This document shows, one piece after another, positions 23,033 through 31,451 of a stretch of 64,000 bases of DNA (positions within the stretch are counted from its first letter, which is position 1; each line of letters starts with the position of its first letter). The stretch lies in NCBI GenBank assembly GCA_003141435.1, contig PLLW01000046.1, positions 3,577 to 67,576 of the forward strand, written 5' to 3'. Made by a program: the position numbers and the translations under genes. This stretch comes from Ignavibacteriales bacterium. Its GTDB lineage: Bacteria > Bacteroidota > Ignavibacteria > Ignavibacteriales > Ignavibacteriaceae. The notes under the pieces are model-generated. The model was given only the letters and a program-made list of their open reading frames with translations, ran no database searches and was not told the origin of the DNA.

Positions 23033-23300
23033 TTTCTCCTGATAATCTTTTATAAATTTAGACGGTAAAATGCTGAAAAAGTTACTTCTATAATATGAAA
23101 AATACTTGGTTGGTCAGAAAAACTGATAACAGGTGTTTTTTCTAAATAGTCAAATAAGCATAGAAACTAAATATTTCTGTTAATTCGAGAAAAACATTGG
23201 CTGTAAATCAAACTATTCATTATTTTTGTATTAAGTTTATAAATCAATAGAGTTTTCCTTAATATATTTATAATGGAAGGAATGGTTCTAGCGGGTTTTT

Positions 23301-26300
23301 ATGTCAATTCAATTAATTAATCAATACTACAACAAACGGAACCGTATTGTTCAATACGGCGGCTCCAAAAATGAATTAAGCATAAGGGATCCATTCAAAG
23401 ACCTTCTCAATCATTACGCTGATAAGAAAAACCTTCTTCTGATACCTGAACTAGCTATTATGGGGACTAAGGGTTCAAAAGTAAAACCGGATGGCACGTT
23501 AAAGAATGCTTTGCGGTTAGACTATGGTTATTGGGAAAGCAAGGACGAAAAGGATAGCATTGATGAGGAAATAGATACCAAGATCAAGAAAGGGTATCCT
23601 CTTACAAATATTATATTCGAGGATGGGCAGACAGCTATCCTTATCCAGCATGGGCAGACAGTTGCGCGCGTAAATATGAATGACAGGGATAAACTTGATG
23701 AAATCCTTAATCAGTTTATTAGTTTTGAACACCCACAGGTAAAAGAATTCACAGAAGCGTTATTAAAATTTAAGGAAGACCTGCCGAATATTCTTGAAGC
23801 TTTGCGTGAACTAATGATTAAGCAGGGGAAAACAAATCCAGGTTATGTAGAAGCACGAGATAAATTCCTTGAGCATTGCAGAGAGGAGATCAATCCTGAG
23901 TTTACTCCCGATGACGTGAGGGAAATGATAATTCAGCATATCTTAACTGAAGAAATATTTAATGCCGTTTTTGATGAAACCCATTTCCACCGAGAGAACA
24001 ATATTGCCCGTGAACTTGAAAATGTAATCGGGACATTCTTTACAGGTGAAACCCGAAGGAATACTCTTGAAGGGATCAAACATTATTATTCGGTTATAAG
24101 CAATAATGCCCGCAATATGGCTGATCACCATGAAAAGCAGAAGTTCCTGAAGGTTATTTATGAGAACTTCTATAAAACATATAATCCTAAAGCGGCTGAC
24201 AGGCTTGGCGTTGTTTACACTCCAAATGAGATTGTTAATTTCATGATTGAAAGTACCGATTATCTTTTACAGAAGCATTTTGGGAAAACTCTTGCCGATA
24301 AGAATGTAGAGATACTTGACCCGGCTACAGGAACCGGCACTTTTATCTGCGATATTATTGATTACATCCCCAAACAGTATCTGCTTTATAAATACAAAAA
24401 TGAGATACATGCAAATGAGGTTGCGATACTTCCTTATTATGTGGCTAACCTGAATATTGAATACACATATAAGCAGAAGATGGGAATTTATGAGGAATTT
24501 CCGAATTTATGTTTTGTGGATACGCTTGATAACACCGGGGCTTTAAAGTACTCTGGTCATCAACAGCAGTTGTTTGGATTTAGTTCTGAAAATGCTTTAA
24601 GGATAAAAAAACAGAATGAAAAGAAGATATCTGTAATAATCGGGAACCCGCCATATAATGCTAATCAGAAAAACGAGAATGAGAATAATAAGAACAGAGA
24701 ATATCCATTAGTTGATGAAAGGATAAAAGATTCCTATATAAGAGAAAGCTCAGCTCAAAAAACAAAATTATATGATATGTATACACGCTTTTATCGCTGG
24801 GCTTCAGACAGAATAGATAATAATGGGATACTTGCATTTGTAACTAATAGAAGTTTTATTGATAGCAGGACATTTGATGGATTCAGAAAATGTATTCAAA
24901 ATGATTTTTCTGAATGCTACATAATTGATACAAAAAGCGATGTAAGGGTAAATCCAAAAATTGCCGGAACAACGCACAATGTTTTCGGAATTCAAACCGG
25001 TGTAGCATTAATGTTTTTGGTGAAGAAGGAAATGCAGGAAGGGAAGTGCAAGATTTATTATATGTCGATGCAGGATGAATGGAGGAAGGAGATAAAACTG
25101 GATTGGCTAAGGAACAATAATCTTAAGACTACTACTTTTGATAGTATTACTCCTGATAAAAATAATAATTGGATTAACCTTTCTGAAAATAATGATTGGG
25201 ATAGCTTATTGCCACTCATAGGCAAAAAAAGCGAACAATCGATTTTTAGATTTTCTTCATTAGGAGTTTCTACTAACCGGGATGAATGGGTATATGACTT
25301 TAATAAAAAAACATTAAAAAAGAAGATGTTATTTTTTATTGGTCACTTCAATCATTTGTTGACTAATAATGATTCTACTTGGAATGGGACAATTAAATGG
25401 AGCGAATCTTTAAAAAGCGTATTTAAGAGAAATCAAAAAATTGTATATAAAGATAGTCTAATTATTCAGGTGAATTACCGCCCCTTTATTAAGCATTATT
25501 ATTATTCAGCGAATCTTTTAAGTGATCGATTAACTCAAAATCATAATGATATTTTTGGAAATGATTTGCTAGCAAATAATGACATTATTAGTTTTTCAGG
25601 TGTGACTTCCTCGAAAACTTTTAATATTCTCGCATCCAACTTGTTAGTAGACCTTCATTTCAATGGAGATGCAAATTGTCTTCCACATTATGTATATGCT
25701 AAAGATGGAGAGCGTGTAGAGAATATTACCGATTGGGGACTTGAGCAATTCTGGAATAAATATAAAGACAAGAAAATTACTAAGGCAGATATTTTCAATT
25801 ACACTTATGCAGTTCTGCATAATCCTGCCTATCGAAAGAAGTATGAACTTAATCTTAAAAGAGAATTCCCGCGTGTACCATTTTATAAGGACTTTTGGAA
25901 ATGGGCAAGGTGGGGAAAGGAGTTAATGAAACTTCATATCAACTATGAAGAGGAAAAGCCATTCGCATTAAAACGTATTGATATAAAGGCTGTTGAGAAG
26001 AAACAGAAACAGAAGGAATTCGTTCCAAAGGTTAAAGAACCTGAACCAATGTTTGGAATGAAACCGAGAATCAAAGTTAAATTAAGAGCTGATAAGACCG
26101 CAGGGACAATCGAACTTGATGATATAACAACGTTAAAGGGAATTCCAAAAGAGGCGTGGGATTACAAACTGGGGAATCGGTCTGCAATTGAATGGATATT
26201 AGACCAGTACAAAGAAAAGAAACCCAAAGATCCCACCATAGCAGAGAAATTCAATTGTTACAGGTTTGCGGATCATAAAGAGGAGGTAATAGAACTCATT

Positions 26301-26369
26301 AGAAAAGTAACCACGGTTAGTATGGAAACAATGGAAATAATCTCCCAGATGGAACTTGAAAAGGAATAG
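23301..26369 (+). CDS. Single-polypeptide restriction-modification enzyme candidate: N-terminal PD-ExK nuclease-like motif, gamma-class N6-adenine methyltransferase, type-ISP C-terminal specificity domain
   Basis: P63-D64...E79-S80-K81 (KPDGTLKNALRLDYGYWESKD) lies at nt 23490-23543. SAM motif I is ILDPATGTGTF and catalytic motif IV is IIGNPPYNA. The C-terminal LHNPAYRKKYELNLKREFPRVPF and WDYKLGNRSAIEWILDQYK resemble the Type_ISP_C domain. I saw no helicase or Walker motifs. Confidence 0.75.
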   Translation: MSIQLINQYYNKRNRIVQYGGSKNELSIRDPFKDLLNHYADKKNLLLIPELAIMGTKGSKVKPDGTLKNALRLDYGYWESKDEKDSIDEEIDTKIKKGYPLTNIIFEDGQTAILIQHGQTVARVNMNDRDKLDEILNQFISFEHPQVKEFTEALLKFKEDLPNILEALRELMIKQGKTNPGYVEARDKFLEHCREEINPEFTPDDVREMIIQHILTEEIFNAVFDETHFHRENNIARELENVIGTFFTGETRRNTLEGIKHYYSVISNNARNMADHHEKQKFLKVIYENFYKTYNPKAADRLGVVYTPNEIVNFMIESTDYLLQKHFGKTLADKNVEILDPATGTGTFICDIIDYIPKQYLLYKYKNEIHANEVAILPYYVANLNIEYTYKQKMGIYEEFPNLCFVDTLDNTGALKYSGHQQQLFGFSSENALRIKKQNEKKISVIIGNPPYNANQKNENENNKNREYPLVDERIKDSYIRESSAQKTKLYDMYTRFYRWASDRIDNNGILAFVTNRSFIDSRTFDGFRKCIQNDFSECYIIDTKSDVRVNPKIAGTTHNVFGIQTGVALMFLVKKEMQEGKCKIYYMSMQDEWRKEIKLDWLRNNNLKTTTFDSITPDKNNNWINLSENNDWDSLLPLIGKKSEQSIFRFSSLGVSTNRDEWVYDFNKKTLKKKMLFFIGHFNHLLTNNDSTWNGTIKWSESLKSVFKRNQKIVYKDSLIIQVNYRPFIKHYYYSANLLSDRLTQNHNDIFGNDLLANNDIISFSGVTSSKTFNILASNLLVDLHFNGDANCLPHYVYAKDGERVENITDWGLEQFWNKYKDKKITKADIFNYTYAVLHNPAYRKKYELNLKREFPRVPFYKDFWKWARWGKELMKLHINYEEEKPFALKRIDIKAVEKKQKQKEFVPKVKEPEPMFGMKPRIKVKLRADKTAGTIELDDITTLKGIPKEAWDYKLGNRSAIEWILDQYKEKKPKDPTIAEKFNCYRFADHKEEVIELIRKVTTVSMETMEIISQMELEKE

Positions 26370-26529
26370 TAATTAAAGCAATTGTACTAAAGACCTAAAA
26401 TATGTAATTTTTGTTGAATTTAAGCCTTTCGATATGTAATTGGCTTGGATTTATGTAATATTCATCATGTTATTGCTTTGGATTTAGATAATATATATAC
26501 TAATATTGCCTTGTATTAATGGAGTTTGT

Positions 26530-27846
26530 GTGTACATTAATAGGAAAGCAGATACCGAGTTAAAAAAATGGAGAGAAGAGAGTAACCACAAGCCCCTTTT
26601 AATAAGGGGAGCGCGGCAGGTTGGCAAAACTAAAACAATCAGAGAATTTGGAAATTCTTTTGAAAGCTTTGTTGAAATCAACTTTGAAGAAAGCCCCCGG
26701 CTTAAATCTCTTTTTGAAGAAGATCTTTCACCCATCTCTATTTGCGAAAATTTATCTGCCATTTTAAAGACCAGCATCATACCGGGAAAAACACTCCTAT
26801 TCTTTGACGAAATACAGGAATGTCCAAGGGCAATAGCCTCACTTCGTTTTTTTTACGAAAAAATGCCAAAACTTCACTTAGTAGTTGCCGGTTCATTACT
26901 GGAATTTGCACTTCAGGAAATGGCTACATTCGGTGTGGGCAGAATTCGTTCCATGTTTATGTATCCTTTGAGTTTTTCCGAATTTCTAGCTGGTGCAGGA
27001 GAGTTTCAATTACTTGAAATTATAAAACAATCAAACCCCACTAAACCAATTAATGGAGTTCTACATAATAGATTAATAGAACTAGTACAAAAATTTATTT
27101 GCCTCGGTGGAATGCCAGAGGTGGCAGCTACTTATTTTGAAACCGGGGATTTGTATAAATGCCAGCAGCTGCTTGATGACTTAATTATTTCTATTCAGGC
27201 AGATTTTGCTAAATATAAAAAGCGGGCGCCGGTTTCCAGATTGATTGAAGTGTTCCAATCTGTTGTATCTCAAGCCGGACAAAAATTTGTATATAAGAAA
27301 GCATGTATACAGGCAAATCATAAACAAATTAAAGAAGCAATACAGCTGCTTATTAATGCAGGTCTCGTTATTCCGGTCACTCATAGTTCTGCTAATGGGA
27401 TACCTTTGGGAGCAGAGGCTAATTTGCAGAAGCAGAAAATGCTTCTATTTGATACCGGAATTTTTCAGCGGATTATGAATCTTGACCTAGCTGATTTTCT
27501 ATTATCAAAAAATTTCGACGCCATCAATAAGGGTAATGTTTCGGAACAGTTCGCAGGGCTCGAATTAATTAAAGTGTCATCTTGCTATCAGACTCCATAC
27601 CTATACTATTGGCATAGAGAGTCACGAAACAGCAATGCTGAAGTTGATTATATTCTGCCGCTTTCGAATAAAATAGTACCGGTTGAAGTTAAATCCGGGA
27701 CAAAGGGATCTATGCAAAGTCTTTTTTTATTTTTGGAAGAAAAAAAACTTTCACAAGGAATAAGGATTTCAAATGAGAATTTTTCAACTTATGACTCAAT
27801 TGAAGTATATCCATTATACGCAGTGGAAAATATTGGATTGAAATGA
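26530..27846 (+). CDS. AAA+ ATPase (AAA_14) with a C-terminal DUF4143 / PD-(D/E)xK-like domain
   Basis: Walker A LLIRGARQVGKT and Walker B LLFFDEIQ. The C-terminal NAEVDYILPL...VPVEVKSG reads as a D...ExK nuclease-like motif. No ATG is available. The GTG at 26530 (giving YINRK...) is preferred; a TTG at 26506 is possible. Confidence 0.75.
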   Translation: MYINRKADTELKKWREESNHKPLLIRGARQVGKTKTIREFGNSFESFVEINFEESPRLKSLFEEDLSPISICENLSAILKTSIIPGKTLLFFDEIQECPRAIASLRFFYEKMPKLHLVVAGSLLEFALQEMATFGVGRIRSMFMYPLSFSEFLAGAGEFQLLEIIKQSNPTKPINGVLHNRLIELVQKFICLGGMPEVAATYFETGDLYKCQQLLDDLIISIQADFAKYKKRAPVSRLIEVFQSVVSQAGQKFVYKKACIQANHKQIKEAIQLLINAGLVIPVTHSSANGIPLGAEANLQKQKMLLFDTGIFQRIMNLDLADFLLSKNFDAINKGNVSEQFAGLELIKVSSCYQTPYLYYWHRESRNSNAEVDYILPLSNKIVPVEVKSGTKGSMQSLFLFLEEKKLSQGIRISNENFSTYDSIEVYPLYAVENIGLK

Positions 27847-27887
27847 ACACAATAACTGTACAAATATCTATAGATCGAACTAGAACA

Positions 27888-28013
27888 GAGAAATTTAATA
27901 GTTACCGCTTTGCTGATCATAAAGAAGAGGTAATAGAACTAATCAGGAAGGTAACCACAACAAGTATGGAAACTATGGCAATAATCAATCGTATGGGGAA
28001 TGAGAAGGAATAG
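27888..28013 (+). pseudogene. Orphan 41-codon remnant homologous to the 3' end of the R-M gene
   Basis: EKFNSYRFADHKEEVIELIRKVTTTSMETMAIINRMGNEKE-stop versus EKFNCYRFADHKEEVIELIRKVTTVSMETMEIISQMELEKE-stop at 26244-26369. That is 34 of 41 residues identical by my count. No start codon or upstream gene body. Confidence 0.8.
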
Positions 28014-28183
28014 TATGGGCGAGAAAATGAAATGGGGGAAATATAGTACCAGTTGGTTCGTTATATGTACTGTATATATAAATTGAACTATGTGCAAGCA
28101 AGGAATTGCGCTGCAAATGCGCTCGAGACGCGCTCGATTCAGTAGGGGAACAATAATTTTTCTGTAAGAAAAACGGAGTAATT

Positions 28184-28882
28184 ATGGGCAAGTTAGAAAA
28201 GAAAAGAGGTAAGACTAATATAAGTGGGCTTGCAGGGGATATTGAATTTTATACAATCAAGGGGGAAACATTTTTCAAGACTCACGCCAAAAAGCATAAA
28301 AAGAGCAGGTCAAAAAAGGCTGTAAGCGGGAGAAGTAACTTTGCATCAGTGGTAAAATTAGCAAAGGAAACAATTAAAATTCCGGAGCTTAAAGAAATCT
28401 GGAGCCACTCTAAATTAAAGGGAATGAATGAATTTCAAAAACTAATTAAATATAATATGCCTTTAGCATATGAGGGAGATTTAACTATTAAAAATTTCAT
28501 CACACATAAGGGGCTAAACTTATATATCCCTGATATATCGCTTGAGGACTTTACTTTGAGTTTTACATTCGATGTATATGGATTAATAAAACCTCCTCTT
28601 AAACTTCATATGTTTATTTATATGTATAATCGTAAAATGAAAGACAGTAGTGCATTTTCAAGTACCTCCAGATCTATTTCAATAAATCAGGATGATATCA
28701 GTATGCTAAGGGAGAAGGGTGAATCAAAGTACAATATGAAGGTTAAACTGGTTGGAGATGAAAAGAAATTTCTGTCGGATTATAAGGATGTACTTGTGCT
28801 TTTTGCGGTGACAGGTACTCCTACAATCCCAAACAGGAAAAGCTGGACAAATACGGTAGGATTTGATATTCCGCTGATATAA
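28184..28882 (+). CDS. Hypothetical protein with a very basic N-terminus
   Basis: ATG preceded by GGAG. 232 aa with a Lys/Arg-rich first 60 residues (KKRGKT...KKHKKSRSKK). I could not assign a family. Confidence 0.5.
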   Translation: MGKLEKKRGKTNISGLAGDIEFYTIKGETFFKTHAKKHKKSRSKKAVSGRSNFASVVKLAKETIKIPELKEIWSHSKLKGMNEFQKLIKYNMPLAYEGDLTIKNFITHKGLNLYIPDISLEDFTLSFTFDVYGLIKPPLKLHMFIYMYNRKMKDSSAFSSTSRSISINQDDISMLREKGESKYNMKVKLVGDEKKFLSDYKDVLVLFAVTGTPTIPNRKSWTNTVGFDIPLI

Positions 28883-28974
28883 TAAACTCTTTTTAGTTAT
28901 TAGTATGAGTATATTTTATTTAAAACTTATCGGAGATGATAGTAATAAGAATAAATAGGGGAGATAGAAACTAA

Positions 28975-29015
28975 AAAACCTCAAATCTTCGCTTTTCGCT
29001 TAAATTTGAGGTTTT
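28975..29015. terminator. Bidirectional rho-independent terminator
   Basis: aaaacctcaaat / atttgaggtttt form a perfect 12-bp stem flanked by A and T runs. Lies between convergent genes ending at 28882 and 29058. Confidence 0.65.
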
Positions 29016-29057
29016 ATTCTCTTTTGCTTTCCCAAAAGTTCATCTATAGTTCTCCTA

Positions 29058-31451
29058 TTAGAAATTTAACTTAAAACCTAAATTAAAAAATCTTGGCGAT
29101 AGGATGTTTGGTAAGGGAACGGGTTGTGTTGTTTCAGGAAAAACATGATACCATGAATATGAAGTAATATTGTATTTGTTGAAAACATTTAATACATCAA
29201 CAGTAAAAACAATATTTCTTCTATCAAAGATATTAAACTCAAATGTTAGTCCCATATCAACTCTGAAATAAAACGGATATTCTTCAGTAACATTATAATT
29301 TGGGACAACCTGGTATGACCCCGGAGTTGCACCAGGTACACTAATCATCGGATAAATGCGATAGCCCGTACCAAATAGAAATAATGTATGGACTTGAAAG
29401 TTCTGATGTTTCTTTGCCTTATCCTGAAGAAAAATCCTGATTGTATGTGTCTGGTCCAATGGGCTTTTTACATACGGAAAGTTGCCCGGTGTTTCTTTTT
29501 CTTCCGCATTCAAATAACTGTAGCCAATCCAGGTTTCCATTCCCTTGACTAATTCCCCTTCATATTGTAAATCCAATCCGTATGCAAACCCCTCATAATT
29601 ATTTTTATCACCGTAAGTTAAATCCATTTCATTAATATAATAAGGTATTAGCCTGCTTAAATTTTTATAAAATAATTCCGCAGTGAACATTGCATTTTCT
29701 TTAAAATTATTTTTCCAGCTTAAATTATATTGAACATCCTTTTGTGATGACAAGGATTTTGCGTCTGTTATACTTTTATCCCGGGTTTCATAAAAATAAG
29801 GGGGTTGATAATAATATCCCCAGGTCAGGTTAAATGAATTTGAAGTATCGGGCTTGTATGAAATGCTTGCACGCGGGCTAATCAAAAACTCACCATTGAA
29901 ATAATATTTCAACGCTCTTAAACCGGCATTAACGCTTAGCTTGCTGTTTAAGAAAATATTGTCTTCAATATATGCTGAAAGAGAATTAAAATCGGCATTT
30001 AATTTCTGAATTGCGGTACTGGAAAAATTTAAAACCGAGTCAGCACCTGTATAATATGTTAATTCATCAAGTGAGCTTTCCATTTTTGAATATCTAAGGG
30101 TTGCTCCCGCAGAGATAGTTTGAGTTTTATAATTTAAGTTGTAATCAGATTTTAATTCAAATCTTTCCGTGTTAAGATAATTTTGAGCAACTTCATGTCC
30201 TGTCTCAAGGTACCGCATGTTATCTTGCGGATTATAGGCATCATTGGAATAATAAACATCGTATGATAAATTTTTGTTGTTAAGTTCTTTATCAGAATAG
30301 TAAGAAATTGAAGTGGTTAAACTGGAATTATCACTTAAAGGAGCTAAGAATTTTAATCCAAGTAAGTTTGTATTGTATTTATAATTAGAACTACCATCAA
30401 AATTTAAAGTTACTTGCTTAATATCCAGGTATGAAGTTTGGAAATTACCAAACCAACTCTGCGGTATTAAATCAAAATTATTTTTGGCTGTTAAAAATAA
30501 CAATTGAACCTGGTAGTTATTAGGTAGGTCGTAAGAGCCGAGAAATTGAAAATCATCAAAACTTGGTTTATACTGACCTTTGGTTTGTAGTGTTTTGTCA
30601 AACAAAGACGGATAAGCATAGCGAAAGCCTGTCCTCCAGTTTAAGTTTCCGGTTTTATCATGCAGCGTTAACCCCATGTTGAACAAGTCAGCATTTAATT
30701 CTCCACCAAGTTCAGGGCTTTCTTCAGTGTAATAATTTACTGCAAGGGAGGAAGACATTTTATCTCCATAATGAACAGGAAATGCAGCATGATAGAATTC
30801 CAAACTGTTAACCATGTTTTCGTTAACAATAGACTGGCTTTCTTCATTGCCCTGCTGAATTAAATACGGCTGATAAATTTCATAGCCGTTCAGGTAAATT
30901 AAATTCTCATCAAAATTGCCGCCCCTTACATTATACGTGCTTGATAACTCGTTATTTGATGTAACACCGGGTAAAATTTTTATACTTCTAAGAATGTCGG
31001 AATAAAGATTGGGCATGTTTTGAATGTCTTTAGATTTCAATGTGTCAGGACTTTGAGTGCCAAAGTATCGATTCGCATTGATAGTAATACCGTTCATTAC
31101 ATAAAAGCTTGATTTTAGAGAAGCGTTTAATAGAATATTTGTTTCGTTTTCGGTGATGCTTACATTCTTTAATAGGGTTTCGTAGCCGACATAGCTAAAA
31201 GTAATTTTATATTTTCCGGGCTTTATGTTTAAAATATAATTTCCAAGACTGTCGGTCGATGTACCAAACGTTGTATTTAGGACAGAAATATTTACCCCCT
31301 TAAGAGGAGTATTACCGTTTGCATCTTTTACATATCCTTTTAAATAGACTAACCTATTTTGTCCGGCTATATTTATAGCCAATACTATTATTGTCGCTAA
31401 AGTGAGTTTCAAACGATTTAAAGACAGCGAAGAGTATTTTATTAATTTCAT
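29058..31451 (-). CDS. TonB-dependent outer-membrane receptor with N-terminal carboxypeptidase-regulatory-like domain
   Basis: Signal peptide and a CarboxypepD_reg motif (GYVKDANGNTPLKGVNISV...TDSLGNYILNIKPGKYKITFSYVGYE). Long beta-barrel ending in an aromatic residue (FKLNF). Confidence 0.8.
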   Translation of the reverse strand: MKLIKYSSLSLNRLKLTLATIIVLAINIAGQNRLVYLKGYVKDANGNTPLKGVNISVLNTTFGTSTDSLGNYILNIKPGKYKITFSYVGYETLLKNVSITENETNILLNASLKSSFYVMNGITINANRYFGTQSPDTLKSKDIQNMPNLYSDILRSIKILPGVTSNNELSSTYNVRGGNFDENLIYLNGYEIYQPYLIQQGNEESQSIVNENMVNSLEFYHAAFPVHYGDKMSSSLAVNYYTEESPELGGELNADLFNMGLTLHDKTGNLNWRTGFRYAYPSLFDKTLQTKGQYKPSFDDFQFLGSYDLPNNYQVQLLFLTAKNNFDLIPQSWFGNFQTSYLDIKQVTLNFDGSSNYKYNTNLLGLKFLAPLSDNSSLTTSISYYSDKELNNKNLSYDVYYSNDAYNPQDNMRYLETGHEVAQNYLNTERFELKSDYNLNYKTQTISAGATLRYSKMESSLDELTYYTGADSVLNFSSTAIQKLNADFNSLSAYIEDNIFLNSKLSVNAGLRALKYYFNGEFLISPRASISYKPDTSNSFNLTWGYYYQPPYFYETRDKSITDAKSLSSQKDVQYNLSWKNNFKENAMFTAELFYKNLSRLIPYYINEMDLTYGDKNNYEGFAYGLDLQYEGELVKGMETWIGYSYLNAEEKETPGNFPYVKSPLDQTHTIRIFLQDKAKKHQNFQVHTLFLFGTGYRIYPMISVPGATPGSYQVVPNYNVTEEYPFYFRVDMGLTFEFNIFDRRNIVFTVDVLNVFNKYNITSYSWYHVFPETTQPVPLPNILSPRFFNLGFKLNF

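Follow-up and report, generated by a model that had tools for sequence, protein, structure and literature searches.

A DrdV-like restriction-modification gene, a PDC-S01 candidate and a conserved small protein in one Ignavibacteriales locus: probably a patchwork of independent genes

Type ISP restriction-modification (R-M) enzymes, such as LlaGI and LlaBIII, carry an SF2 (RecA-like) translocase of around 500-700 amino acids in the same chain together with an Mrr-type nuclease, and they cleave after translocating enzymes collide. The paper on DrdV, from Deinococcus, describes Type IIL enzymes as lacking a translocase, and biochemistry and structure (DrdV) show that this class works without ATP or translocase. 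Typical of the class are methylation of one strand and cleavage at a fixed distance that depends on several sites. According to the same paper, the methyltransferase and the TRD of DrdV are 'highly similar' to their Type ISP counterparts in LlaGI/LlaBIII.

Two other described systems are related to the locus reported here. PDC-S01 is a candidate single-gene defence system proposed from guilt-by-embedding, with an ATPase plus PD-(D/E)XK architecture; one representative was challenged with T7, T5 and T4 and was not among the protective systems. Besides, insertions with long target duplications have been described at R-M loci, and the repeats are near-identical in the published cases (Furuta, Abe & Kobayashi 2010; PMC2853133).

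Layout of the locus and the DrdV-family enzyme

The window, that is the whole stretch of 64,000 nucleotides that was analysed, holds three ORFs on the plus strand (Table 1), which are flanked by unrelated minus-strand genes coding for a DUF4097 protein, a TonB-dependent receptor and AcrB. A previous sequence-only reading had described these ORFs, the flanks and a strong terminator, and had assigned a nuclease motif, a methyltransferase and a specificity domain to gene 1, Walker A, Walker B and D...EVK motifs to gene 2, and a highly basic N-terminus without assignable family to gene 3; all of these features were recovered. The terminator combines a 12-bp hairpin with a downstream U-run (dG -14.3, z = -4.7 vs shuffles), which a simple scanner overlooked because its loop is long. 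That scanner detected no intrinsic terminators between the three genes, so read-through co-transcription is possible.

Table 1. Positions of the features of the locus within the window.
Feature	Position	Strand	Remarks
Upstream (promoter) region of the R-M/gene-3 module	23164..23300	+	homology among module copies begins here
Gene 1, predicted single-chain Type IIL (IIG) R-M enzyme, DrdV family	23301..26369	+	1022 aa; homology and motifs
Repeat copy A, functional 3' end of gene 1 (final 47 codons plus stop and 2 nt)	26228..26371	+	repeat alignment
Gene-2 cassette leader, containing direct repeats	26372..26529	+	repeat array also before gene-2 homologues
Gene 2, predicted AAA_14 + DUF4143 ATPase-nuclease, PADLOC candidate PDC-S01	26530..27846	+	438 aa from GTG
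Repeat copy B, putative stump left from the original R-M 3' end of the module (...EKFNSYRFADHKEEVIELIRKVTTTSMETMAIINRMGNEKE*)	27872..28015	+	78% to copy A
Gene-3 leader	28097..28183	+	conserved upstream of every gene-3 homologue
Gene 3, protein with basic N-terminus	28184..28882	+	232 aa; downstream partner of the R-M clade in Ignavibacteria
Hairpin terminator	28975-29015	.	common to the convergent gene 3 and TonB-receptor gene

Gene 1 is predicted to be a full-length, self-sufficient and motor-free Type IIL enzyme of the DrdV family. It aligns end to end with DrdV (PDB 7LO5; 1065 bits, residues 1-1020), and its domain order is PD-ExK nuclease, helical coupler, gamma-class N6-adenine methyltransferase and Type_ISP_C TRD, with Pfam matches to Type_ISP_C (2.7e-87), ISP_coupler, Eco57I and N6_Mtase. 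The nuclease residues E25, D64, E79, K81 and K94 are all found at the DrdV positions; DPATGTGTF (SAM) and GNPPY (NPPY motif) also align with DrdV, and the C-terminal TRD lies downstream of them. The PADLOC comparison that had been proposed for the locus assigned this gene to REase_MTase_IIG (933 bits).

Pfam revealed no helicase or ATPase domain in the 1022 amino acids of gene 1, so the reported lack of an SF2 translocase stands; on the other hand, the need for such a motor does not hold for an enzyme of the DrdV-family class. The "missing translocase" is not a gap because all the nuclease and methylase catalytic residues are conserved. Classification of gene 1 as a Type ISP enzyme was considered and rejected, the defining in-chain SF2/RecA-like translocase being absent. 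Its similarity to LlaGI/LlaBIII reaches 421-429 bits over residues 177-1017, and the alignment with LlaBIII begins only at LlaBIII residue 741.

Residues 1-400 share 96-100% (~98%) protein identity with three intact copies of the module at 82-86% nucleotide identity between gene 1 and sister alleles, which points to strong purifying selection on the gene. The TRD core (residues ~600-850) is 33-67% identical to the same three copies, except for one bin of 82%; this unlikeness to the sister alleles suggests a specificity of its own. The TRD core has also diverged from that of DrdV, and the recognition site is therefore probably not CATGNAC.

Gene 2 and its insertion at the end of the R-M gene

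The second ORF extends from 26506 to 27846, but the most likely start is the GTG at 26530 instead of the TTG at 26506, because the homologues are ~438 aa long and begin with MYIxRK; GGAG is found 8 nt upstream of this GTG. The protein matches AAA_14 (5e-27) and DUF4143 (2.4e-24) in Pfam and PDC-S01 in PADLOC (PDLC04786, 465 bits, profile positions 3-432 of 439). Its Walker A (GARQVGKT), its Walker B (FFDEIQ) and the D...E-V-K residues D373, E386 and K388 are invariant across 38 homologues. The AlphaFold model (pLDDT 80.5, pTM 0.82) matched the fold of the Walker-type ATPase PDB 2QEN best, and next those of NB-ARC, ORC and RFC proteins; the predicted fold thus resembles STAND/ORC-type switch ATPases and not an SF2 translocase. 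The gene is single-copy in this genome. Its leader contains ATTGCCTTGGATTTTTGT-like units with a ~33-nt period (26437-26520) and three copies of TATGTAAT. Gene-2 homologues in L147, L148, L150 and L151, four contexts that are unrelated, are likewise immediately preceded by this repeat array, and the leader is 86% identical to a leftover fragment in L171.

Gene 2 is located within a 1644-bp insertion, which is bordered on both sides by diverged copies of the final 144 nt of gene 1 (113/144 identical, 78%; BLAST E ~1e-26 to 1e-30). The homology between the two copies stops right after TAGTA. Beyond copy A the sequence is foreign, and copy B is followed by the native downstream TAGTA(T/C)GGG found in L159, L160, L166 and L152, and is contiguous with gene 3 in all the related loci. 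In L159, L160, L166 and L172 the R-M gene is followed directly by gene 3, and the 144-nt repeat is single-copy. The insert between the repeat copies holds gene 2 only, with no mobility gene, and copies A and B correspond to two different natural C-terminal allele types. Gene 2 is a secondary insertion where the R-M gene ends, accompanied by a 144-bp target duplication. With an identity of only 78%, however, the two repeat copies fit a simple duplication of the target poorly, and they suggest that recombination took a more complex course.

Gene 3 and the linkage of the three genes across loci

Gene 3 gave no match in Pfam, NCBIfam, PHROGs or PDB sequences, and its AlphaFold model (pLDDT 70.8) gave no fold match. 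Homologues are numerous (46 were found, and the alignment of 37 of them contains one single-residue gap only), and the wider family comprises 347 clusters, with this genome carrying ~16 copies. Given its very basic N-terminus, the protein may bind nucleic acids. One remote relative shows a weak match to DUF6266 (PF19781; 18.2 bits, E 0.0018, with a gathering threshold of 23.4) and gene 3 itself shows none to this family; the gene-3 family may be considered distantly DUF6266-like. In the leader of gene 3, three 11-nt units with a GCGC core (28107-28139) are accompanied by a -7-like box rich in AT and by AAACGGAGTAATT as ribosome-binding site; decayed solo copies of this leader also occur at other places of this genome and in its sister genomes.

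Every recovered intact copy of the gene-1 clade has gene 3 ~170 nt downstream, in at least four genomic contexts (the window, L159, L166 and L172), the last three of which hold the R-M gene and gene 3 without gene 2. Genes 1 and 3 are linked as a conserved module within this R-M clade of Ignavibacteria, and in L159, L163, L165, L166, L171 and L172, whose genomic contexts differ, homology starts on the left side at 23162-23198. This linkage was not foreseen when the locus was read conservatively as independent genes. The R-M gene has been deleted repeatedly and gene 3 survives in most loci: it stands alone beside R-M scars in ~10 loci, including L158, the orthologous locus of a close relative, and it is intact and conserved in ~13 loci with a deleted R-M gene. 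The upstream region of the module is retained in most of the scars.

The linkage test for genes 1 and 2, which answered the proposal to look for co-occurrence of this R-M subfamily with AAA_14/DUF4143 genes, covered ~91 DrdV-like loci elsewhere. No gene-2 homologues were detected in 11 DrdV-like loci from genomes of the family (tblastn, E<=1e-4) or in 80 DrdV-like loci taken from genome_contigs, whose flanks were included to a maximum of 10 kb (phmmer, E<=1e-3), and AAA_14/DUF4143 was absent from the top 25 families among 123 nearest neighbours. Related to this, none of the four closest gene-2 homologues (75-79% identity; solitary) has an R-M neighbour. No conserved linkage was thus found for this pair. 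The scars of an R-M/gene 2/stump/gene 3 arrangement are preserved in another genomic context (L171), and the P0134 contig carries an AAA_14/DUF4143 gene (450 aa) 180 nt upstream of a gene-3 homologue, with no R-M gene. The trio is thus no one-off and has persisted or spread as a haplotype, which leaves some room for cooperation.

Explanations of the locus and comparison with described systems

The locus is probably a small patchwork defence island made up of three independently working genes, whose activities are predicted from their relatives. A patchwork is preferred to a new split enzyme because gene 1 looks self-sufficient and gene 2 was inserted later; besides, each of the three genes persists somewhere without the others. 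By analogy with DrdV, a single polypeptide of gene 1 would bind an asymmetric site through its TRD, slowly methylate one adenine with SAM, and cut only once several enzyme-bound unmethylated sites meet in trans, a meeting that would let the PD-ExK domains pair without ATP or translocase. Gene 2, together with its repeat-bearing leader, would make up a self-contained PDC-S01 candidate cassette that was inserted at the R-M 3' end; its protein would combine a STAND/ORC-like nucleotide switch with a PD-(D/E)XK nuclease and may act alone. Gene 3 would be the resident downstream partner of the Ignavibacteria R-M clade, with a leader of its own and independent of the R-M gene.

The sequence-only reading had proposed a new split R-M-like or Abi-like configuration, in which gene 1 would be a Type ISP-like enzyme that has lost its motor and gene 2, perhaps together with gene 3, would provide ATPase and nuclease in trans. 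In favour of this, the genes lie next to each other on one strand with no terminator detected between them, the methyltransferase and TRD of gene 1 are homologous to those of Type ISP enzymes, and the composite arrangement was once present in L171. However, enzymes of the DrdV family are complete and ATP-independent, gene 2 came by secondary insertion and is absent from the sister modules, its predicted fold is that of a switch ATPase, genes 1 and 2 each persist alone, and there is zero co-occurrence in the ~91 DrdV-like loci and in the four contexts of gene-2 homologues. This missing linkage largely refutes the proposal, which is very improbable as a whole; the conservative alternative of that reading, independent defence genes side by side, is supported. 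A pairing of genes 2 and 3, or a preference of AAA_14/DUF4143 cassettes for landing where the R-M 3' end meets the gene-3 leader, is just as hard to credit: the P0134 contig and the gene 2 scar upstream of gene 3 in L171 speak for it, but most gene-3 loci lack any trace of gene 2, no gene 3 neighbours any of the four closest gene-2 homologues, and the three cases, the window included, may all stem from one insertion event.

A functional pair of genes 1 and 3, with gene 2 as passenger, is unlikely, though less so than the two previous explanations. Gene 3 could then be an accessory that, for example, acts as a regulator, modulates self-restriction once TRDs have been swapped or contributes to the mobility of the module. 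Its constant position downstream of the intact R-M genes of the clade is in favour of such a pair, as is a second member of the gene-3 family that adjoins another Type_ISP_C enzyme in this genome (C110), but the random chance of the latter adjacency is ~0.03 given 16 copies, which makes it weak evidence. Moreover, gene 3 has its own leader and stays intact and conserved in the ~13 loci where the R-M gene was deleted, most of the ~16 family copies of this genome are far from R-M genes, and among 92 DrdV-like loci that do not belong to the clade a family-wide HMM picked up a single member, at a distance of 9 kb. It is similarly doubtful that gene 3 is an accessory of the DrdV-like clade in a module whose flanks serve as a docking frame for recombinational exchange of TRDs and defence cassettes. 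The frame would consist of the promoter and the 5' half on one side, and of the 3' stump and the gene-3 leader on the other; PDC-S01 would be an example of a whole defence cassette exchanged in this way, and gene 3 might control restriction after specificity swaps or co-mobilise the module.

Taking the patchwork of independent genes as the preferred explanation, the main value of the analysis is corrective. Gene 1 belongs to the known Type IIL class, so the motor-less Type ISP-like enzyme has no missing partner to look for, and gene 2 should be annotated as a PDC-S01 candidate in its own right. Specialists may find two minor points useful. The locus provides a clean natural series (intact, with insert and at several decay stages) of the entry of a defence cassette into an R-M module, repeated R-M loss and retention of the neighbouring gene. 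The gene-3 family of Ignavibacteria is small, conserved, multi-copy and undescribed, and travels with one R-M clade.

Compared with DrdV (PDB 7LO5/7LVV), gene 1 is collinear throughout (1022 vs 1029 aa) and has the same order of nuclease, coupler, methyltransferase and TRD, with conserved catalytic and SAM motifs and no ATPase; it differs in its divergent TRD core and in its host phylum (Ignavibacteria). With the Type ISP enzymes LlaGI/LlaBIII (PDB 5FFJ, 4XQK) it shares a homologous coupler, methyltransferase and Type_ISP_C TRD. Gene 2 matches the PDC-S01 (COG1373) models in full length and has the same AAA_14 plus DUF4143 architecture, but here it sits within an R-M module. Gene 3 is similar in size to the DUF6266 proteins of Bacteroidota and has an N-terminal G-x-G-K-V-G-like basic segment like them. 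Finally, as in the insertions described in PMC2853133, there is no mobility gene and the flanking direct repeat is longer than 30 bp and single-copy where the insert is absent; here as there, TRDs show allelic diversity and R-M genes are replaced by other genes at the same locus. The present case differs from the published ones in that the repeat copies are 78% identical instead of near-identical, and in that the cargo is a non-R-M gene which landed inside an R-M module.

Organisation of the locus and nature of gene 1

The three same-strand ORFs described in the sequence-only reading are all present on the plus strand, in an Ignavibacteria genome assembly of 3.08 Mb and 123 contigs, and minus-strand genes flank them, coding for a TonB-dependent receptor and AcrB past gene 3 and for a DUF4097 protein at the opposite end. 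Every motif quoted in that reading was found, and the strong terminator claimed downstream of gene 3 is borne out by its free energy and z-score (see table). No terminator-like sites were detected between genes 1, 2 and 3. The hairpin sequence is a repeated element in the genus, found also at C47:14508-14577 of the same genome and on several contigs of two other genomes (G079 and G104). The receptor gene has 94% DNA identity to the same-genus genome G079 (C234:2768-5147), whereas its neighbouring genes are only 70-81% identical to that genome, which suggests a recent transfer or a binning artefact.

Features of the three-gene locus, with positions in the window
Feature	Position	Strand	Description
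Gene 1	23301-26369	+	ORF, 1022 aa
Copy A	26228-26371		last 144 nt of gene 1
Gene-2 leader repeat array	26437-26520		about three 18-nt direct repeats, ATTGCCTTGGATTTTTGT-like, 33-nt period
Gene 2	26506-27846	+	ORF call; start revised to GTG 26530 as the most likely one
57-aa ORF	27843-28013		ATG overlaps gene-2 stop (ATGA); reads through the R-M stump
Copy B	27872-28015		repeat of the gene-1 end
Gene-3 leader	28107-28139		
Gene 3	28184-28882	+	ORF, 232 aa
Repeated element with hairpin	28957-29027		
Hairpin terminator	28975-29015		between convergent gene 3 and receptor gene; 12-bp stem then U-run, dG -14.3 kcal/mol, z = -4.7
TonB-dependent receptor gene	29056-31432	-	

The Pfam domains of gene 1 are ISP_coupler, N6_Mtase/Eco57I and Type_ISP_C, and the PADLOC model REase_MTase_IIG spans the whole protein (933 bits). 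In a PDB sequence search, residues 1-1020 align with DrdV (7LO5/7LVV, 1029 aa) with 1065 bits. The matches to the Type ISP enzymes LlaBIII and LlaGI begin only at their residues 741 and 578, respectively, that is, past their motor domains. The nuclease residues of DrdV (D64, E79, K81, K94 and E25) occupy the same positions in gene 1 in five of five cases, and the NPPY and SAM motifs are likewise kept. [quoted passage not shown] Because the match is full-length, the residues are kept and DrdV works without a motor, the motor-less Type ISP-like enzyme belongs to the already known Type IIL class with no component absent, and the translocase earlier reported as missing leaves no gap to be filled.

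Residues 1-400 of gene 1 share 96-100% protein identity with three intact sister alleles although the DNA is just 82-86% identical, which points to strong selection. The TRD core (residues ~600-850) is 33-67% identical, one bin (82%) being the exception, and this divergence means that the sister alleles probably differ in specificity. Besides gene 1, the host genome encodes two further motor-less Type_ISP_C enzymes, paralogues with 40% and 24% identity to it (C8:40695-43730 and C110:16138-19239).

Gene 2 and its relation to gene 1

Gene 2 combines AAA_14 and DUF4143 domains and is matched over its full length by PADLOC PDC-S01 (465 bits). The revised start is most likely the true one, since its homologues are about 438 aa long and begin with MYIxRK. 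The Walker A, Walker B and D/E-x-K residues are invariant among them. PDC-S01, which joins an ATPase to a PD-(D/E)XK domain, is a very common candidate system obtained from guilt-by-embedding; in one study a tested representative did not belong to the four candidates giving E. coli B protection against T7, T5 or T4, and a literature search on AAA_14 and defence yielded nothing relevant. The closest fold to the AlphaFold model (pLDDT 80.5, pTM 0.82) is the Walker-type ATPase PABY2304 (2QEN), followed by NB-ARC, ORC and RFC proteins, so that the protein is modelled as a switch-type ATPase and not as a Type ISP SF2 translocase.

Immediately 3' of gene 2, the terminal 144 nt of gene 1 (copy A) recur with 78% identity (copy B). 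At three metagenomic or genomic loci (L159, L166 and L172) gene 1 has an intact sister, 82-85% identical in protein, that is followed about 170 nt on by a gene-3 homologue, without gene 2, and L160 is a partial fourth case. In each, the single R-M 3' end aligns with both copies; copy B goes on as TAGTA(T/C)GGG, the native sequence downstream, and in copy A foreign sequence lies directly past TAGTA. By these alignments gene 2 is an inserted cassette. Simple duplication and drift is an unlikely origin for the two copies, because each belongs to a different natural C-terminal allele type, ...IISQMELEKE in copy A and similarly in L160, and ...IINRMGNEKE in copy B, L159, L166, L152 and L163; alleles have probably recombined here. 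The 57-aa ORF would encode a copy of the last 45 residues of the R-M enzyme and is probably a relic rather than a gene, since it is absent by deletion in L171, a related locus.

The cassette carries its own control region, because the ATTGCCTTGGATTTTTGT-like array also lies just upstream of gene-2 homologues at L147, L148, L150 and L151, in unrelated genomes and contexts; the array probably binds a regulator or autoregulator. Target duplications as a general flank of such cassettes were discarded (flanking repeats at 0 of 4 other homologue loci), as was a multi-copy mobile gene, ruled out by the single copy of gene 2 in the host genome. At L149:3422-5098, some 900 bp separate a gene-2 homologue from a 558-aa ORF corresponding to the C-terminal half only of DnaE (finger, HHH and OB domains), and the N-terminal half does not adjoin it.

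Two readings of the locus had been put forward: a split enzyme, in which gene 1 depends in trans on the gene-2 ATPase, and independent defence genes placed side by side. A lack of conserved linkage, which the sequence-only reading had named as evidence against the composite system, is what was observed for genes 1 and 2. DrdV-like genes are patchy (15 of 201 genomes of the family), and no homologues of gene 2, gene 3 or the flank genes were detected at 11 such loci of family genomes (tblastn, E<=1e-4), nor, with up to 10 kb of flank per locus, at 80 full-length loci from many phyla (phmmer, E<=1e-3). Among 123 nearest-neighbour ORFs, AAA_14 and DUF4143 are outside the top 25 Pfam families; therefore at most three of them carry these domains. 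Of the gene-2 homologues on long contigs, the closest four (75-79% identity) all stand alone, with no R-M neighbour, in four different settings: beside a nucleotidyltransferase, beside RecJ, in a TIR/NB-ARC island and beside HigB. The split enzyme is thus not supported, given a complete Type IIL protein, an inserted gene 2, the absence of linkage and a switch-type fold, and the evidence supports independent genes side by side.

Gene 3 and the decaying R-M module

Close homologues of gene 3 number 46, none of them annotated; the 37 that were aligned are all about 232 aa long, with one single-residue gap in total. Every gene-3 locus examined shares a leader of three 11-nt GCGC-core units followed by AAACGGAGTAATT-ATG, and most retain remnants of the gene-1 promoter and ORF. 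In L152 the first ~8 codons of gene 1 are fused to its last ~43, and in L163 and L169 46 codons are fused to ~34; L165, L161, L170, L137, L139 and L156 represent further decay stages. L158, the ortholog of this locus from a close relative (89% identity in the DUF4097 protein, 92-95% in DNA), is devoid of window positions 23270-28000 and retains gene 3 at 94%. Because the intact pair was found in four or more distinct contexts, the R-M gene and gene 3 behave as a recurrent unit, from which the R-M gene frequently drops out and gene 3 stays. G079:C367 was rejected as an empty site: the pstS-type context of L152 recurs around it, which marks it as another module copy that has lost the R-M gene.

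The ~90-nt element upstream of gene 3 gave no match in Rfam and was discarded as a REP-/MITE-like repeat or RNA, being the gene-3 leader, whose other genome copies are decayed stumps. Decayed solo copies of the leader lie in the host genome at C38:32591, C109:10124, C109:43371, C74:3156 and C4:4544, and in sister genomes, some still showing a broken gene-3 start codon region; they could be an operator/promoter cassette or the footprint of lost module copies.

By profile search, the gene-3 family comprises 347 clusters of proteins of ~215-235 aa, one of which matches DUF6266 weakly; PHROGs gave no match to gene 3. About 16 members are found in the host genome. One of them divergently adjoins the third Type_ISP_C enzyme on contig C110, two adjoin an SLT lysin, and the remaining ones are in unrelated places. 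A general link of the family to DrdV-like genes was rejected, and gene 3 is a lineage-specific companion of this R-M clade, with at most a hypothetical part in its mechanism, because in 92 DrdV-like loci elsewhere the family HMM detects a single, distant member. The AlphaFold model of gene 3 is moderate (pLDDT 70.8), with small beta-hairpins at the N-terminus and a beta-sandwich at the C-terminus on either side of a helical middle; against PDB and BFVD its best matches (TM <0.3) were generic beta-sandwiches, none meaningful, and reading a function from the fold was abandoned. The two SLT-linked members (C8:11489-17172 and C31:953-4126), of 227 aa each, precede an SLT lytic transglycosylase and a membrane protein, with a dynamin-like GTPase also following in the C8 copy; these clusters may be a small phage-like or mobile element.

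Related loci and known systems

L171 is a decayed form of the composite arrangement in the window, with a gene-1 fragment (EAWDYKLGNRS), the gene-1 stop region, the gene-2 leader (86% identical), the last gene-2 codons, the stump end and gene 3 in this order. On another contig an AAA_14/DUF4143 gene lies 180 nt upstream of a gene-3 homologue, without an R-M gene. Because of these scars and this contig, the three-gene haplotype is not limited to the host genome. Each gene nevertheless persists without the others as well. At L171:1415-5575 the gene-1 promoter region now heads a 704-aa protein without known domain and a 574-aa Por_Secre_tail (T9SS) protein, and the scars of the R-M gene and gene 2 come after this pair, an order suggestive of allelic substitution within one slot.

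With regard to known systems, gene 1 is a further example of the DrdV-family Type IIL enzymes and gene 2 of the PDC-S01 candidates; what is added here is gene 2 as an inserted cassette and genes 1 and 3 as a recurrent, frequently decaying module. The structure is like the "insertion with long target duplication" and allelic substitution at R-M loci (PMC2853133), although the repeats in the window differ from those long target duplications by their low identity.
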